The notes below the pieces were generated by a model. The model made no database searches. It saw nothing but the letters and a program-made list of their open reading frames with translations, and had not been told where the DNA came from. Shown one piece after another: positions 15,375-47,300 of a stretch of DNA of 64,000 nucleotides. The stretch spans positions 27,279,266-27,343,265 of the forward strand of contig NC_081362.1 of the NCBI RefSeq assembly GCF_030684315.1, given 5' to 3'. The first letter of the stretch is position 1, and each line of letters starts with the position of its first letter. Source of the stretch: Stegostoma tigrinum (Eukaryota). Made by a program: the position numbers and the translations under genes.

Positions 15375-15902
15375 AAAGATAATAAAGTGTGGAGCTGGAT
15401 GAACACAGCAGGCCCAGCAGCATCTCAGGAGCACAAAAGGTGACGTTTCGGGCCTAGACCCTTCATCAGAGAGGGGGATGGGGAGAGGGTTCTGGAATAA
15501 ATAGGGAGAGAGGGGGAGGCGGACCGAAGATGGAGGGAAAAGAAGATAGGTGGGGAGGTTGCGAGGGGATAGGTCAGTCCAGGGAAGACGGACAGGTGAA
15601 GGAGGTGAGATGAGGTTAGTAGGTAGGAAATGGAGGTGTGGCTTGAGGTGGGAGGAAGGGATGGGCAGGTTTGTGGATTTTGGGAAGGAGATAGAAATGG
15701 GCCGTGCGGGGTTGGGGAATAATAAGGTTGGAGTCTGTGGGTGGGAGGTCCCCTGAGTTGATCACCACAATGAATGGGGTGGCACAGTGGGTCAGTGGTG
15801 TTGGAGATGATAGTTTGGTGCTCGGGGGTGGGGTCATGATCAAGGGGGTGGTAGGAGGTGGTGTCGGAGAGTTGGCATTTGGCCTCGGTCCATGTAGAGG
15901 TC
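15375..15902 (-). mobile_element. Internally deleted Penelope-like element with hammerhead motif and 13-bp TSD
   Basis: PQPRTAHFYLLPKIHKP (RT-associated motif); terminus shared with other PLE copies; TSD ACATG(C/T)TTAAATT at 15362-15374 and 15903-15915. Confidence 0.8.
15438..15473 (-). ncRNA. Minimal type I hammerhead ribozyme motif in PLE terminus
   Basis: Minus strand reads CUGAUGA-AGGGUCUAGGCCC-GAAAC-GUC: conserved core boxes, stem II and short palindromic stem III. Stem I is weak. Confidence 0.65.
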
Positions 15903-19325: not shown

Positions 19326-20180
19326 TTAGTTAATTAATAAAACTGGAATGAAATGTCAGCTTCACATTCATCATGACTGGCAACATCAGATTCTCATTTA
19401 AACACGTTTCACAAATACCCTTTATAAATTTTGGCCCTTATTTGATTCCCAAGCCCACAATAGTGTGATTGCCTGTTAGTGTACCTCTGAATTGGCCCAG
19501 CAAGCTGCTTAGTTGTACCAAGCCACTAACTAAAACTAAAAATAAAATAAAACCAAACAAACCACCCAGCACAGACGTAGACACCAGATGCAGCCCTGGG
19601 CAAGGTTGGCCCAGTTAGCATTGTGAAGTCTCCTTACTAATAACTGGGGTCTCATTCCAAAATTACAACAGCTTTCTTACTGTTTAGTCAAGCTTGACAT
19701 GGTTGTACTTAGCAAGGCCCCACAGAAACACTACTGCAGAGGTATAATAAAGGATTGGGAACCAAAGGTGAGGTATTTGGAAATTTAAAAAATGTGACAG
19801 TGAGAAATTTGGAACAAACTTACAGATATTACATTTGTGACCACATTTCAAAAGTATTTAAAATCAGCTGTAAAGCACAATATAGCATCTTGAGATTATG
19901 AAAGGGGTCACAGACATGCAAGTTCTTTCCATCCTCACTTTCCGGATTGGGAAGTGCGGGTGTAGAAGGCATTTTTTTTTAAAAAAGAAATGGTCATCAC
20001 TTTCACCATTCATTAAATTTTGTCAGAAACAAAAATATAGCTTAAATAGTACGAACCTCAAGATATTTTGGACAAGGCCTGACCAGCCTGAAGTCTTATG
20101 AGGGGGCAGGTGTAGCACCTCCTGCAGTTGCAGGGAAAGACTTTATCTATTTAAATTTTTAAAAAGAGAAATTAACTTAC

Positions 20181-20269
20181 AGTGTTTGTTTCTGGTCGGA
20201 ATACTGCCAAAGTGAAGTCCAGATTGAAAAATTGGAGAAATTCAACAACAAGACCAGCCACCAAACGCC
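20181..20269 (-). CDS. CEP43: CEP43 exon 4, LisH motif (GRLVAGLVVEFLQFFNLDFTLAVFRPETNT)
   Basis: tcatAG acceptor, GTAAGT donor, 89 nt, phase 1-0; LisH-type motif matching human GRLVASLVAEFLQFFNLDFTLAVFQPETST. Confidence 0.96.
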
Positions 20270-21569
20270 CTATGAAGGAAAATTGTCTGTCAAATTCTGA
20301 AAAAAATTTACCAGTATGTTGTCATACGTGGAACAGTTATAGCCAAAAAGGATACCACTTGACCAAGTGTGTCAATTCTGGTTCGATGCAGATGAACTCA
20401 GCTAGTTATATACCGCTGGCTTTTCCCCATAGTCTTAAATTGCTTTCTCTTCAAATAAGTTTCCAGTTCCCCTTTGAAAATATGGGTTACATCTGCCTTT
20501 ACCAAATTCTATATTATTCCACATTGTAATCATTCATTGCACTAAATAGATTTTGTTCTTTTTCCATTCACCTTTAATCAGTGCTTTCTACTTCTTCACC
20601 GTTCCTCAATGGATAATTTCTAGAAATAGGTTAAAATCTCTCTGTTCAGATTATGTATGGGAGTCGAATGAAGGCACTCTGGCCCAGAGACAGATAAGCT
20701 ATCACTGCTCAACAAGTGTCACTAAAATATTGTTTCGCAGATCTCAGCATGTCTAGATATTTTCGAATTAATTTGTTCAGAATTGTTAAGACTGCATTAA
20801 ATGAGTCTTTAATCTGGGCCTCCAGGCTGCAATAGAGTCTCTACCTTTGTGCCATACAGCACTTGCTATCCATTTTGGACATATTTTGCAATCAACCTGT
20901 TTAGAATTATTATGATACAACTCTGGACTAGATAGGAATTGAAATTTCTTGGCTCAGAGACAGGTGCATTCCAATGCTGTACATCTCTACAACTACTACT
21001 GCACGACAAGAATGCTTAGAAACTATACAGTTTCTAGTCAACCTGCTCAGATTTGTTATTTTGTATACTTATGGAAAGGACTTGAATTTGGGCCTTTTGA
21101 ACTGCCAGAGAAAGTGGTAGATGCAGATTCAGTTCCAGTATTTAAAAGACATTTGGATAGATACATTAATTGGAAAGGTTTAGAGGGATATGGGCCAAAT
21201 GCAGACAAGTAAGCTAGTTTAGTTTGGGAAACTAGGTCAGCACAGACAGCATAGAACAGCACCTCATTTTCCACTTGAGAGCTCTACAGGCTTCTGGACT
21301 CAGTATCACCAACAGCCCTCTAGTTTCGAACTCTCCCCCACCCGAGGAAAAAGATCTTTGCTATTCACCTTATCTATGCCCCTCATGATTTTATAAGCCT
21401 CTATAAGATCACCCATCAAACTCCCACTCTCCAGTAAAAAGTCTCAACTTACCCTTATAACTAAGCCTCCTGACTCAGAGATAGGGATACTATTACTGCT
21501 TCAAAAGAGGCCTTCCAAATATTTTAATGATTTTTATAAATCCAACCTCTTCAGAGATATTATTGCATG

Positions 21570-24767: not shown

Positions 24768-26047
24768 ATGTGGTGGGAAGAGAAAGCCAGAGGGATGCAA
24801 CAATGTACTGAGCAATAACAGTGAAGCTTTGAATTTACCAAAGTCAAATGGCCAAAACTCACTTTGCATGTCTCTCTTTATAATAATAATAGTAATAATT
24901 AATAATATCTGGAGGAATTATTTTCAACAACTCTTTAAAGGTGAATCCACAATAAAATTACTCTCCCACTATTCTCCTATAGAATCCATGGTGAAATGCC
25001 ATTAATGGTAGAGCTGAAAAATGCAATCACACAGACAAACTGTGGTCTTCAAAGGTGGTCAGTTTTAGCCAATATCAAAACTCCATGCACCCATCTTAAT
25101 GATTCAGGAATAAAAGACATCCAGACTTCAGAAATGTTAACTATCTTCAAGAAGGCAGGTAATTTATGTGTGGAACAAATAAGATTTCTTTTTGTCCATA
25201 GAATGGAAAATCTTGATTCACGTGCTCCTGAACTGCTTACATCTGGGGGCTGAGTAATTCACACGGGGACATTAAGTGTAGCTTTAGGCTTTTCTGAAGA
25301 ACTTTCTGTTTGCTCTGTTGCCAGACAAATCCAAGCAAAATGCTGAAATCAACACAAGGAATCCCTCAGTGCATTAATTGTTCTGACCAATGCATTTCAC
25401 TCTATAGTTCAAAAAGCTCTGGATCTCCAATAAAAAACTACTTCATAATTCTGCAAACATTACATTCAAATGGGAAGTCCTAAATGCTCTTACAAAATCC
25501 AAACCGGGATTAAGCAAAACTGTGTGATAGCCTCTGAGGTTCACCTTAAAAGATTACTGCCCTCCGGTGTCAGCATTAAGTAAGAACAGCAACGGAAATC
25601 TCCAACCTCAGTCATCTTAGTGCCAAAATCAAGTTGGTCATCATATGAATAAGTGACCTACAGTTTACAGATGACTGCATAGCCCTGCTCAATCTCTTCA
25701 ATTCTACATTCAAGATTTGTGACTTATTCTTGCCAAAATAAACATCAGAAATCAACCCACATATGTTGAAGGAAACTGTCATGAATTTTCAGCATTTCCT
25801 ATATTTTGGCAGCCAAAGGATCATCATCGACAAGGAGATCTGACACTCAACTACACCAGTTCAGCCTTCTGCAAACTACAGCAGCTTATATTTAACAATA
25901 AAGATCTTTGTAAATCAGAGAAGTATAGTGTATAGGCAGCTTGTCATCTCACACTGCTGTAATCCAAACATCTAGAAATATCCTTCTTCAAGACAGCTCC
26001 ACTAAAATTCAGACAAAATACCTGAAAATCAACTTTGATGAACTGGA

Positions 26048-27446
26048 GAGAGATAATGGGAACTGCAGATGCTGGAGAATCCAAGATAATAAAGTGTGAA
26101 GCTGGATGAACACAGCAGGCCAAGCAGCTCCTCAGGAGCACAACCCCAAACTAAATCCCAAATCCCCAAACTAAAATAGCCCCACGTGCATGCTCCTGGC
26201 CCATTTCCCTCCAAATCTAGTATCAGAGATGGTGGGAACTGCAGATGTTGGAGAATCCGAGATGGCGGCGTGTGGAGCTGGATGAGCACGGCGGGCCGGG
26301 CGGCATCTTAGGAGCGCGGGGGCTGGCGTTTCGGGCCTGGACCCTTCATCAGAAAAGGGGGAGGGGAGGGGGATTCTGACATGGATGGGGGGGGGGGGGG
26401 GGTGGTAGGCCAATTGAGCATGTATTGGGGAGGGGATGGGTGGAGAGGAGACGGACAGGTTGCGGGGGGGGGCAGGGATGGAGCCAGTGGAGGTGGGTGT
26501 GGGCGGGGAGGGGATGGGTCGGCCTGGGGAGGACGGATAGGTTGGGGGGTGGGATGGGGTTGGTGGGTGGGGAATGGAGGTGTGGCTTGGGCTGGGGGGA
26601 GGGGATGTGTGGGAGGAGGGGCAGTTTGGGGGACGGGGATGAGCTGGGCTGGTTTTGGGATGCAGTTGGGGGGGGGGGGAGATTTTGGGGCTGGTGAGGT
26701 CCGCGTTGGTGCCGTTGGGCTGCGGGGTTCCCAGGGGAAGTGTGGGTTGCTGTTCCTGCGACCTGCGGGTGGCGTCGTTGTGGCACTGCAGGAGGCCCAT
26801 GATGGGCATGTCGTCTGAGGAGTGGGAGGGGGAGTTGAAATGGTCGTCTGAGGAGTGGGAGGGGGAGTTGAAATGGTTGTCTGGGGAATGGGAGGGGGAG
26901 TTGAAATAGTTGTCATTTCGGCTCCCCCTCACATTCCTTAGACGGCATGTCCATTCTGCAGTGCCACAGCGGTGCTGCCCAGGGGTTGTGGGGACGGCGA
27001 ATCGTGTTCTGCTTGGGGGCCCTGCAGCCCGGTGGCATCAGTGTGGATTTCACTAGCTTCGGGGTCGCCCCTCACCCCACATGCCAGCCCAACTCGTCCC
27101 CGTCTCCCTAGCCTGTTCTTCGTCTCACTTGCCCCTCCTCCCACCTCGAGCCGCGCTCCCGTTTCCTTCCTGCTAGCCTCATCCCACCCCCTTGACCTGT
27201 CCCCTCCCGGCCTCCCCTCCTGCATTCGCCTCTGCTGGCTCCATCCCCACCTCTTTGGCTTGTCTGTCTCCTCTCCACCTATCTTCTTCTCTATCCATCT
27301 TTGATCCACCTCCCCCTCTCTCCCTATTTATTTCAGAACCCTCTCCCCATCCCCCTCTCTGAAGGGTCTAGGCCCGAAACGTCAGCTTTTGTGCTCCCGA
27401 GATGCTGCTTGGCCTGCTGTGTTCATCCAGCTTCACACTTTATTAT
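26048..27446. mobile_element. Composite fold-back PLE insertion with A-to-G hypermutated core and 15-bp TSD
   Basis: TSD CTTTGATGAACTGGA at 26033-26047 and 27447-27461; inverted arms about 26225-26835 and 26920-27446; dense A>G relative to sibling copies. Confidence 0.85.
26810..26914. repeat. 33-bp tandem repeat, about 3.2 copies, at the hairpin apex
   Basis: Unit GTCGTCTGAGGAGTGGGAGGGGGAGTTGAAATG starts at 26810, 26843 and 26876 (variant). Confidence 0.85.
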
Positions 27447-29199
27447 CTTTGATGAACTGGAACTAGGTTCAAATGGTCATAAAAGAATCTCTCCTGTCAG
27501 GTGGTTTTCTCAACTCAAATAATCAACACGACAGGGAGGGAAAAGAAGTGATCAACACTACAGGGAGGAAAAAGAAGTGTTTCAAATGCAGTTTGAGGCT
27601 CTCCATGGATCACGGCATCAATGACTGGGAGGAGCCTATCAAAAGGGCTACAACTTTGTTCATCAAGTTGAATCATGCTTTGATGCACATATCATATTGA
27701 AGAGACGGAACAGTAGAAAGGAAAAAAAATACAAATCCTAGACTCTGGAACTCACAATCTATGGGACATCCTGGCCCACATACCCAGAGATCCATAGATC
27801 AATCTATTCAGTCACAATTCACACCCATGGGAAAAATACTAAGAAGATATTATGCTCCAACTGAGGGATAACTAACAACAGTTCCATGGCCTTTAACTTT
27901 GCTGATAAACTCATTATGTGCTGTTTCAACAAATGCGGTGTGGAGGTCCTTGTTCAGCACAACAATTATTACTCATCAACCTTCTTTGCTAGTTTACCAA
28001 ATAAGTTAAACTATCATAATTTGCCTTCAGCAAATCAGTGTTGGCTTTCCTTAATTGGTCCATATTTATAGTGGTTAAATTTTGACTCTGTTTATTGTTC
28101 CTTAGCTCTGTTTTCTATGACTGACAATGACTTGTCTCTAATTGCTAGGATTATCCAAACTTCCTTTTCTGAACCAAAGGTACATTATTTGCAATTCCAA
28201 ATCCTCTAGTACCAACTATGTATCTAAGGTGGATTTGAATATTATTTCCAATGCCTCTTCTACATCTATTCCTAAATTCCTCAGAATCCACAGATGCATC
28301 TCATTTAGTCCTGGAGAATTATATTAACTTTCAGTGCACCTAGACTTTCTAATTCCTCAATTTTATCAACTATCAGCTGATTTTGTGTTCCAGCTACTGC
28401 CTTATCAATATGACTGATGGCATTTGCTTCTTCAACAAAAATATACTCAAGGAACTCATTTGTCATCTCATCCATGCTCTCTGTCTCGTTGCATGTATTG
28501 CCTTTTCGATTCCTAATTGGCCCACCCAGTCTTTTATGATGCAGGTGCCTTTCTGCAATTTTTAGATTCTCTTTTATCTTAGCTTCCAGTCTCTTCCCGG
28601 TTCTCCTTTTCCTTTGGTCATTCTATATTCAGTCTTGTTCTTACAAATATAAACAACCTGATAACTGCTATTTCTCATCTTTCCTTTTTGCTGTAACATT
28701 CGTCATCCAAAGAGCTTTGGCTAAATTTGACTTGTCTTTCATTTCATGGAAAAATATTACTTATAATCAAACAGAGCCATAGAGGGATATTTCACTTTCA
28801 AAACAACCCATTGCTCCCTTACAGTTTTGCCTGTCAATCTTTGATTCCAATTTACCATGATGAGGTCTGTTCTCACAAAACTAAAATTGTACCATACCAG
28901 CCCTGCCCTCTCCATCTTCAATTATTTTTTCACTGACTTTCGTATTATCCTGTTCCGCAGCTAAGCCAAACTTTATGATACTGCGATCACTATCTCTTAG
29001 TCGATCTAACTCATTCCTCAGAATGAAATGCAAAAAATGACTTCTCTTGTTGATTTGGAAACAAAATGATCTAGGAAATTCTTCCCAATACATTTCAAAA
29101 ACTATACCCCACCTTTACATTACAATATTCCAGTGTACATAGCAGGATTGTGCTGTTTTCATTTATTTACCTTACAAATCCAATTAAAACAGTACTTAC

Positions 29200-44304: not shown

Positions 44305-47300
44305 TCAGAATTTATTTTCCCTGAAGCGTGCAGATAAGCAAACATTGGACTTGCAACGGGCATTATGATGCACAATGTTTTGTGCCAGTAAGTAAACTGG
44401 AATTATAAAAGCAGAACTTTACTGTAGAAAGAGCTAATTCAACAATTAATGCAAAATATTTTGATCCTACTAATCATTTTATTATTTATCCATAAAATCA
44501 TAAAACAAGGTGTGAAATTAGGTTGCTTTCTGAATGCCAGGAGAATGTGTTTCAGGAACATAATGGAACCAGTTACTACAGAGATAATAAAATGTGAGGC
44601 TGGATGAACACAGCAGGCCAAGCAGCATCTCAGGAGCACAAAAGCTGACGTTTCGGGCCTAGACCCTTTAGAGAGGGGGATGGGGAGAGGGAACTGGAAT
44701 AAATAGGGAGAGAGGGGGAGGCGGACCGAAGATGGAGAGTAAAGAAGATAGGTGGAGAGAGTATAGGTAGGGAGGGGATAGGTCAGTCCAGGGAAGATGG
44801 ACAGGTCAAGGAGGTGGGATGAGGTAAGTAGGTAGATGGGGGTGCAGCTTGGGGTGGGAGGAAGGGATGGGTGAGAGGAAGAACCGGTTAGGGAGGCAGA
44901 GACAGGTTGGACTGGTTTTGGGATGCAGTGGGTGGCGGGGGGGGAAAAGAGCTGGGCTGGTTGTGTGGTGCAGTGGGGGGAGGGGACGAACTGGGCTGGT
45001 TTAGGGATGTAGTAGGGAAAAGGGGAGATTTTGAAACTGGTGAAGTCCACGTTGATACCATTAGGCTGCAGGGTTCCCAGGCGGAATATGAGTTGCTGTT
45101 CCTGCAACCTTCGGGTGGCATCATTGTGGCAGTGCAGGAGGCCCATGATGGACATGTCATCTAGAGAATGGGAGGGGGAGTGGAAATGGTTTGCGACTGG
45201 GAGGTGCAGTTGTTTGTTGCGAACTGAGCGGAGGTGTTCTGCAAAGCGGTCCCCAAGCCTCCGCTTGGTTTCCCCAATGTAGAGGAAGCCGCACCGGGTA
45301 CAGTGGATGCAGTATACCACATTAAACAGAGGTTCACCTGCACATCTGCCAATGTGGAATGTCATCTTGGGGCCTGGGATAGGGGGGAGGGAGGAGGTGT
45401 GGGGACAAGTGTAGCATTTCCTGCGGTTGCAGGGGAAGGTGCCGGGTGTGGTGGGGTTGGAGGGCAGTGTGGAGCAAACAAGGGAGTCACGGAGAGTGTG
45501 GTCTCTCCGGAAAGCAGACGGGAGGGGATGGGAAAATGTCTTGGGTGGTGGGGTCGGATTGTAAATGGCGGAAGTGTCGGAGGATGATGTGTTGTATCCG
45601 GAGGTTGGCAGGGTGGTGTGTGAGAACGAGGGGGATCCTCTTAGGGCGGTTGTGGCGGGGGCGGGGTGTGAGGGATGTGTTGCGGGAAATACGGGAGACG
45701 CGGTCAAGGGCGTTCTCGATCACTGTGGGGGGAAAGTTGCGGTCCTTAAAGAACTTGGACATCTGGGATGTGCGGGAGTGGAATGTCTCATCGTGGGAGC
45801 AGATGCGGCGGAGGCGGAGGAATTGGGAATAGGGGATGGAATTTTTGCAGGAGGGTGGGTGGGAGGAGGTGTATTCTAGGTAGCTGTGGGAGTCGGTGGG
45901 CTTGAAATGGACATCAGTTACAAGCTGGTTGCCTGAGATGGAGACTGAAGGGTTCAGGAAGGTGAGGGATATGCTGGAGATGGCCCGGCTTTTGTGCTCC
46001 TGAGATGCTGCTTGGCCTGCTGTGTTCATCCAGCCTCACATTTTATTATCTTGGAATTCTCCAGCATCTGCAGTTCCCATTATCTCAGTTACTACAGAGG
46101 TTTTTTTTGCCTTGCCTAGATATAAAATTTATCCAAATACTTGGCATGTGTAAATATTCCCAAATCTTGAATAACACTACACCCATAGGGATAGTTGGAA
46201 AAAGAGAAGTGAAAATATGTAGAGTTTAAAAAAAAAAGTGGCTTAAATTACAATGTAGGAGCGAGGAAGAAGTGTGCATGAGTGCAAAATGTATGTCTTA
46301 TTCATTAACTGGAATTGTGTACAGGAATACCATCAATTACACTGTCATACACTAACCTCTACAGCCTGGTATGTTTGTGACCAAGCCGTTTCTGAATTTT
46401 CAAGTTTGAGTTATATAACAATGACAATATCATTCTATAACACGGAAACAGACCCTTCGGTCAAACTTGTCCACAGATGTTTAATAATTCAAGAGAATTG
46501 GAAAACACCATAGGTAAATACCTACCTCTGGTATAAGTGATTAAAACAAATAATGTTTTGCTTATATAAATGGCATCTTCCTCATTTCTGCTCTCAAAGA
46601 ACAAATTGAGTTTCTTGGGTGCACTTAAACATTTCTCATCAACTGGTATTTCCAAACAATGTTGATTTTTCTAAGTTAATAAAGGTTAAAATAATAGGCA
46701 AAGTAACATTTTAACATACATCTCTTCAGTTGCACTTAGAATGAGGTATTTATAGTCATTGACTCAACCACTATAGAAGAGGCCTTTGGCCCTTCAAGTC
46801 TGTACTACCAAAGTATACTTACTGTACTACACCGATAGCTTTCAATGTTGACATTTTTCAAGTGCTCATTCAGTACTTTTAAAAAGGTTGTGAGGTTTCC
46901 CACCTCAAGTACACTCCCAGGCAATGCATTATCAGAGTCTAACTACTCTCTGGGTGAAAAGCCTTTCCTGAAATCTCCTTTAAACCTCCTGCCTTTCACA
47001 TTAAAATTATGCCTAAAATGGAACAGCTGCTTCCTTCTGTTCACACCCCTTAATCTTATACACCCCAATCAGGTTCCCCCTGAGCCTTCTCTGCTGATCC
47101 ATTGTTTTGCTTTCTGGCATGTACTGAGCTCATGCCAAAAATAATGAATCACAAAATATCAAGACTGTCACAACTGTGTTTTGTGCAGGGCCATAACATT
47201 ATGAACTGTATGAAGGTCATAAAGCTGACCCACTGTTCATTTCCCACTGTGTATTTGTTCTTTGCAAATTAACAAAGTCAAACCTTGTCTTAAGCTCATT

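Follow-up and report, generated by a model that had tools for sequence, protein, structure and literature searches.

An insertion probably derived from an ADAR-hyper-edited fold-back RNA, and its unedited parent locus in the same genome

The 1.4-kb insertion at positions 26048–27446 of the window (the whole stretch of 64,000 nucleotides analysed, G000:C11:27,279,266–27,343,265, from an animal genome of 3.2 Gb) is a retrotransposon copy lying between two identical 15-mers. We are confident that it is a DNA copy of a fold-back element on C33 that was probably hyper-edited by ADAR in a read-through transcript and then reverse-transcribed into the germline. The involvement of ADAR is a likely one, judged from the signature that the changes left in the sequence. 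An edited hairpin RNA had already been proposed in a sequence-only reading of this DNA, and our results support that proposal, none of the three outcomes that it had named as refuting having been observed, while adding two features that it had missed, namely that both ends are unedited and of another copy type, and that similar copies occur genome-wide. The insertion shows no sign of function and is a fossil of germline RNA editing, best read as the RNA-editing counterpart of APOBEC-edited retroelements.

The flanking 15-mers (CTTTGATGAACTGGA; left copy 26033–26047, right copy 27447–27461, both + strand) have no further copies in the window, confirming the perfect target-site duplication described earlier. 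Between them, the insertion opens with an unedited inverted 5′ piece of 96 nt (26048–26143, − strand), which comprises the antisense end of the Penelope-like repeat and that repeat's 3′ tail. In type it agrees with the unedited 3′ tail and not with the parent. The same short inverted piece is present in the sibling at 44.5 kb (45988–46086), indicating an ordinary integration product. The remaining parts all lie on the + strand: at the junction, a brief stutter in which CCCCAAACTAAA-type words are doubled (26144–26159); flank carried over from the parent locus (26160–26224; 60/64 columns as in the C33 flank); the left, antisense hairpin arm (26225–26809); an apex with one 33-nt unit more than that of the parent, three against two (26810–26913); the right, sense arm (26914–27262), which spans the end of the putative GIY-YIG-coding region and the start of the 3′ repeat and shows the parent's deletions; and an unedited 3′ tail of another copy type (27263–27446), with 86% identity to the parent tail compared to 93% to other copies. 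Apex units 1 and 2 are identical, including their G changes, and the 33-nt duplication is thus later than the editing. Family siblings occur in the window near 15375, 23376 and 44580, where copies had been claimed at 15375, 23379 and 44584.

The unedited parent, at G000:C33:~5,060,445–5,061,714, has its apex, deletions and 5′ flank in common with the insertion. The C33 site (~5.0605 Mb) was the best non-self match for two separate queries, one across the junction (26140–26270) and one across the apex (26640–27130), and the alignment of parent and insertion extends from 26160 to 27446 with the apex and right-arm deletions included. A 12-bp target-site repeat flanks the parent; because this 12-mer is found on both sides and the host repeat, presumably a CR1-type LINE tail, continues beyond it, the parent is native at C33. 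The insertion carries 65 nt of the parent's left flank together with the 12-mer (the parent's own left target-site copy, at 26207–26218), which identifies it as the daughter. Rare variants common to parent and copy occupy 24/922 arm columns versus 1/179 tail columns, both counts being small, and divergence between the two at other sites is 5–6%. The existence of an unedited parent implies that the fold-back is older than the A>G changes. The parent's + strand is predicted to form a hairpin of ~550 bp, and its RNA to be 88% paired as one long hairpin (−981 kcal/mol). Neither a parental transcript nor a host gene came to light; among the open frames in 130 kb around the parent only repeats are conspicuous. 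Comparison of the parent with runs X7, X8, X12 and X16 gave no bridging contig, the unique flank being uncovered in X12 and X16, a result that says nothing on expression or on presence in the related species organism B. Two other family copies (L033, C3:120,486,471; L034, C54:4,762,115) occupy the parent's own insertion point within that host repeat, which would reflect either common descent or a hot spot for insertion.

The orthologous site in organism B is empty, as one of its contigs holds 25700–26047 and 27549–27800 at ~6% divergence with 59 letters between them, thereby joining 26047 to 27549 without the insertion, in line with the expectation of the sequence-only reading. The window has a 29-nt tandem pair at 27517–27574, and the empty site is 28 letters shorter there, as it would be with one unit.

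Comparison with the parent reveals a dense scar on one strand. Among the 254 parental A's of the hairpin, 125 read G in the insertion (left arm 79/161, apex 8/22, right arm 38/71), on one strand and in both arms, while T>C changes number 9/213 (Fisher p 2e-30 versus A>G) and G>A changes 7/292 (p 1e-41), the latter indicating that a sense-strand G>A excess of the APOBEC type is absent. None of the 16 A's of the single-stranded flank is edited, the final change lies at 27258–27259, editing ends after 27259, and the tail shows only 2/25 A>G relative to the parent, both where the family has G. The claim that both arms are edited therefore holds for most of their length and fails for the last ~180 nt of what had been taken as the right arm (27263–27446) and for the 5′ piece (26048–26143). 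The same skew appears against siblings: relative to the 44.5-kb copy there are 67 A>G changes in the left arm (next class 12) and 31 in the right, both on the + strand, and two ordinary siblings compared with each other give 68 G>A and 44 A>G. An alignment of 26681–26816 to 45027–45162, previously estimated by hand, yields exactly 18 A>G among 22 mismatches.

Editing depends on the nucleotide preceding the A, with T at 30/35 (.86), A at 41/61 (.67), C at 31/71 (.44) and G at 23/83 (.28). Sparing of A after G (23/83 versus 102/167, p 1e-6) agrees with the sequence-only reading, and both the A>G excess and the 5′-G depletion are thus highly significant when put to a statistical test. A preference for a following G, also asserted earlier, was not borne out at the insertion compared with its parent (45/85 versus 80/165, p 0.59) and was not significant in the pool of 31 other loci described below (284/543, p 0.08). 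Predicted pairing hardly sorts sites within the hairpin (106/206 among paired A's, 17/34 in loops of at most 6 nt and 2/10 in larger ones), and two changes at 26230–26231 lie outside the long duplex. The apical TTGAAA, described earlier as unpaired and unedited, is in its first unit predicted to be paired in the parent RNA. Edited CA reads TG at 4/30 sites, which is suggestive of, though not significant for (p 0.07–0.16), CpG decay of editing-made CG after integration.

The insertion belongs to a wider class. Two motifs, each demanding three clustered A>G changes, were counted genome-wide and gave 44 and 52 matches, with 0 for the reversed controls. The unedited form of the first, a 26-nt terminal motif, has 184,448 exact matches versus the 44 edited ones; by this one motif, a lower bound, edited copies are rare and their effect on bulk sequence is small. 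Sixty loci were fetched, 30 of the 44 and 30 of the 52 matches, from which 6 were dropped in the skew count as this locus or duplicates (leaving 54) and 7 in the cluster-rule count (leaving 53). Beyond the motif itself, 31 of the 54 other motif-selected loci show an A>G excess at p<1e-4; the remaining 23 did not reach this threshold, 14 of them showing little change beyond the motif. Ten unselected copies in a leave-one-out comparison had no A>G excess by inspection. Pooled over the 31 loci, at sites chosen inside clusters, the 5′ neighbour follows the same order as at the insertion: T 125/175 (.71), A 261/402 (.65), C 262/535 (.49) and G 157/525 (.30; p 3e-27).

Under a simple cluster rule both arms are changed on one strand in 15/53 other loci. 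That rule also classes L131 and L134 among the mirrored loci and L126 among the edited ones, assignments that the per-locus excess analysis does not support. Inverted duplicates with mirrored T>C are found at L094, L101, L115 and L121, and they show the form that a DNA-level fold-back takes, which is not that of the insertion. As inversion in DNA turns existing changes into T>C on the inverted piece, A>G on one strand in both arms requires a hairpin in RNA. In 12 short fold-backs the editing also follows the duplex, with 3/86 A's edited in the unpaired extension versus 104/188 in the adjacent paired antisense part and, on the sense side, 62/89 in the inner part versus 2/58 over the final ~50 nt. 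At L088/L116 (C5:20,728,000–20,730,000) an edited fold-back with 67/134 and 40/82 A>G runs at its 3′ end straight into another repeat, which we take to be a CR1-type LINE, and this suggests capture by another element's reverse transcriptase. At L094/L095 (C10:91,697,000–91,700,000) the antisense pieces are edited at 1/95, 27/94 and 44/78 and a mirrored piece shows 28/40 T>C, possibly as a result of repeated template jumps in one event.

The cleanest example is a natural control, a unit with copies on C4, C3 and C12. Its unedited hairpin-bearing unit (L159, C4:6,372,593) ends in GTTCTAT repeats, presumably a LINE-type tail. The C3 copy (L160, C3:40,749,7xx) differs from it by G at 29/44 hairpin A's and by nothing else in 650 columns, with 0 A>G outside the hairpin. 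It is edited right to the end of the sense arm, which demonstrates that this end can be edited. The C12 copy (L161, C12:35,836,2xx) has 27 A>G changes, 23 of them common with C3, leaving 6 private to C3 and 4 to C12. Upstream sequence common with C4 amounts to at least 2.1 kb for C12 and only 190 nt for C3, and the C3 copy was likely moved by another element.

The ends of the insertion point to a second RNA template. Inspection by eye of ~8 diagnostic columns places the tail with the 5′ piece in one variant set, and the two arms of the parent with the edited left arm in the other; the join falls between ~27270 and ~27335, inside a block common to both copy types. Given that both ends are unedited and from another copy type, the insertion is likely a template-switch chimera on the evidence of these ~8 columns, and the tail (27263–27446) likely represents the RNA on which reverse transcription began. 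We thus hypothesise the following course of events. The native parent, with its 12-bp target-site repeat, has a + strand predicted to fold into the ~550-bp hairpin, and we infer that a transcript begun upstream of it folded and underwent A-to-I editing on both arms. A Penelope-like reverse transcriptase would have nicked the C11 target and started on unedited RNA of its own family, copying from 27446 back to ~27270–27335, where it would have switched at the shared block, guided by homology, to the edited RNA and read I as G. It would then have copied the right arm, the apex (with one 33-nt slip), the left arm and the 65 nt of flank, after which the usual short inverted piece from an unedited template would have ended synthesis. 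What is observed today is a copy fixed in DNA that is missing from the related species' orthologous site and that has diverged from the parent elsewhere by 5–6%.

A rather unlikely variant of this account retains the edited RNA and dispenses with the switch, attributing the composite ends to RNA-level joining (ligation or trans-splicing), to later gene conversion, or to a 3′ end shielded by protein or by its own fold. Shielding draws support from the regular sparing of the sense 3′ end in the 12 short fold-backs (2/58 A's over its final ~50 nt versus 104/188 in the partner arm) and from L117, where editing stops at the same block as in the insertion. However, it fails to explain why, at diagnostic columns preserved in the edited left arm, the tail departs from the two arms of the parent, and the C3 control copy is edited to the very end of its sense arm. 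For LINE-1 chimeras, ligation of RNAs has been put forward as an alternative (PMC11838501), but the join here lies inside a block shared by both copy types, as a homology-guided switch predicts, and gene conversion would need both ends to have been replaced with the same type. L152 was considered as a parent of L117 and rejected; its apex is similar, but it has neither L117's flank nor its deletions.

Deamination of A's in DNA, in a cDNA hairpin or an RNA:DNA hybrid at integration, by ADAR or another deaminase, is in our view very unlikely. In vitro, the DNA strand of model hybrids is reported to be a possible substrate of ADARs (PMC12925331), yet editing of first-strand cDNA predicts T>C on the RNA-like strand, which is the class seen at only 9/213 positions. 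Moreover, the piece inverted at the DNA level is unedited here, such pieces elsewhere mirror existing changes, and the editing borders track the RNA duplex.

We discount almost entirely an assembly or polishing artefact in a G-rich palindrome. The interval 26878–27198, which contains at least 32 right-arm changes, is held by contigs of two public runs (X1 and X2) with 1 and 0 other letters, at depths of 9 and 19 compared with 12 and 21 in the flank, as expected of single-copy sequence, so that the right-arm G's are present at the DNA level. These runs derive from two samples of one study, their kind is unrecorded and they may include the assembly's own sample; they comprise ~2.7–3.0 billion letters with continuous single-copy flanks. 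A bisulfite run (X20) was left out owing to thin coverage and heavy conversion. In favour of an artefact, the G-rich arm has long G runs, the contig pieces listed for X1 and X2 did not include the G's of the left arm, and clustered sequencing errors of one type are known to enter references, according to the passages of PMC2873906 consulted. Against it stand, besides the contigs of two samples, a C-rich right arm as heavily edited as the G-rich left, a neighbour rule of the ADAR type, mirrored copies, and the assembly of unedited fold-backs such as the parent with their A's in place.

It is scarcely more credible that the G's reflect a G-rich subfamily, GC-biased conversion or error-prone reverse transcription, explanations that the parent alignment refutes at the insertion. 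One low-change subfamily does exist. Fourteen loci (L110–L112, L122, L124–L126, L129, L131, L133–L137) share the three adjacent A>G of the second motif, at the putative endonuclease-coding end, and little else; they form an ordinary subfamily marked by these three G's only, and could descend from a lightly edited, still mobile copy. At the insertion, 16 of 123 edited sites have a family G frequency above 0.5, but the median over these sites is 0.026, and the arm changes fall at 79 columns that are clearly A in the family, 31 mixed columns and 7 with family G. No identical editing patterns were found among 269 antisense and 83 sense pairs of loci (0/352), in keeping with the prior view that the G's are not a subfamily consensus, and the best unrelated matches to an edited query reach 84–88%. 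Biased conversion would be strand-symmetric, and errors of a reverse transcriptase would neither halt at duplex borders nor spare A after G.

Assignment of the family to Penelope-like elements is putative, drawing on a near-threshold endonuclease match and on anatomy. A frame of sibling L110 matches GIY-YIG (PF01541) at E 1.4e-4 and 22.5 bits, just under the cut-off of 22.6, and one 249-aa L110 fragment in which a telomerase-like reverse transcriptase was sought matched no Pfam family. The terminal repeat has an optional tail of 30–40 nt, with sense ends clustering at reference ~1405 and ~1440, and inverted partial copies or fold-back pairs are common. With fold-backs this common and 184,448 matches to one terminal motif, this very large family must rank among the species' main sources of long dsRNA. 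Across 25900–27600 Rfam gave no match to a hammerhead family, only weak miRNA-hairpin matches below gathering scores. A stretch near 27360–27385 may be a minimal hammerhead-like core, of which the insertion is without three bases. As far as the accessible parts of PMC11167929 report, Penelope-like proteins nick AT-rich DNA and begin reverse transcription inside their own RNA at two sites, with which the two sense end points observed here agree. Penelope/Poseidon elements resemble the present family in the C-terminal GIY-YIG region, putative here, and in the terminal repeat with optional 30–40 nt tail and AT-rich target; the insertion differs as a non-coding chimeric fragment, and neither template switching nor editing appears in those parts of that source (PMC11167929).

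The scar has counterparts in known systems. Upstream-G depletion is described as an ADAR signature, and downstream-G enrichment has also been published for human hyper-editing (PMC4365171, in the sections available). Hyper-edited Alu-pair RNA accordingly resembles the insertion in dense A>G within long fold-backs and in upstream-G depletion, but in that source is known from RNA reads only and shows the downstream-G enrichment that is not significant at the insertion. APOBEC-edited LTR retrotransposons of vertebrates (PMC4866542, as far as consulted) are alike in their clustered changes of one type, neighbour rule, entry into the germline via reverse transcription and polarisation against unedited relatives. 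There C-to-U on cDNA yields sense-strand G>A and only LTR elements were screened, whereas here A>G falls on the RNA-like strand, in RNA duplex only, in Penelope-like repeats with identifiable parent loci. [quoted passage not shown] Here, in contrast, there are dozens of fixed, inherited copies of a non-viral retroelement. The avian cases are reportedly single virus or vector isolates in cells. U6/LINE-1 chimeric retrocopies share with the insertion a 3′ part supplied by the driver and a 5′ part that a different, co-oriented RNA contributed, within one target-site duplication, and the text of PMC11838501 as accessible to us makes no mention of ADAR, editing, edited or inosine. In the present case it is instead a hairpin RNA of the driver's own family that was captured in hyper-edited form, and the join lies within homologous sequence.

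Within the open literature surveyed, subscription papers and supplements lying outside its scope, we found no description of germline-fixed ADAR-edited retrocopies. A 2016 review, in the parts consulted, treats the role of editing in Alu evolution and the mutational role of ADAR in retroelement evolution as undetermined (PMC4982230); judged from that source, write-back of A-to-I edits into inherited DNA had been assumed rather than shown. The present data provide parent–daughter pairs within one genome, one pair differing by A>G inside the hairpin alone. We lean towards the broader view that reverse transcriptases of Penelope-like elements and of LINEs routinely take up hairpin RNAs after hyper-editing, through template switching or read-through, fixing hundreds of single-molecule patterns as a fossil archive of germline ADAR, by a route not previously described that can found subfamilies. 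Since a given copy preserves the edits of a single RNA molecule from the germline, ADAR site preference, editing depth and germline dsRNA become readable from DNA and datable across species. As labels of strand and template, the edits further reveal the poorly known integration of Penelope-like elements, including inversion at the RNA versus the DNA level and template switching.

A CEP43-type FOP_dimer exon lies elsewhere in the window, at 20178–20270 on the minus strand. A second FOP_dimer match (L190, C27:51,958,951–51,959,052) covers profile positions 1–44 in one 90-aa open frame and runs across the point at which the exon of the C11 gene begins (profile 18), and it is possibly a CEP43 retrocopy or a paralogue.
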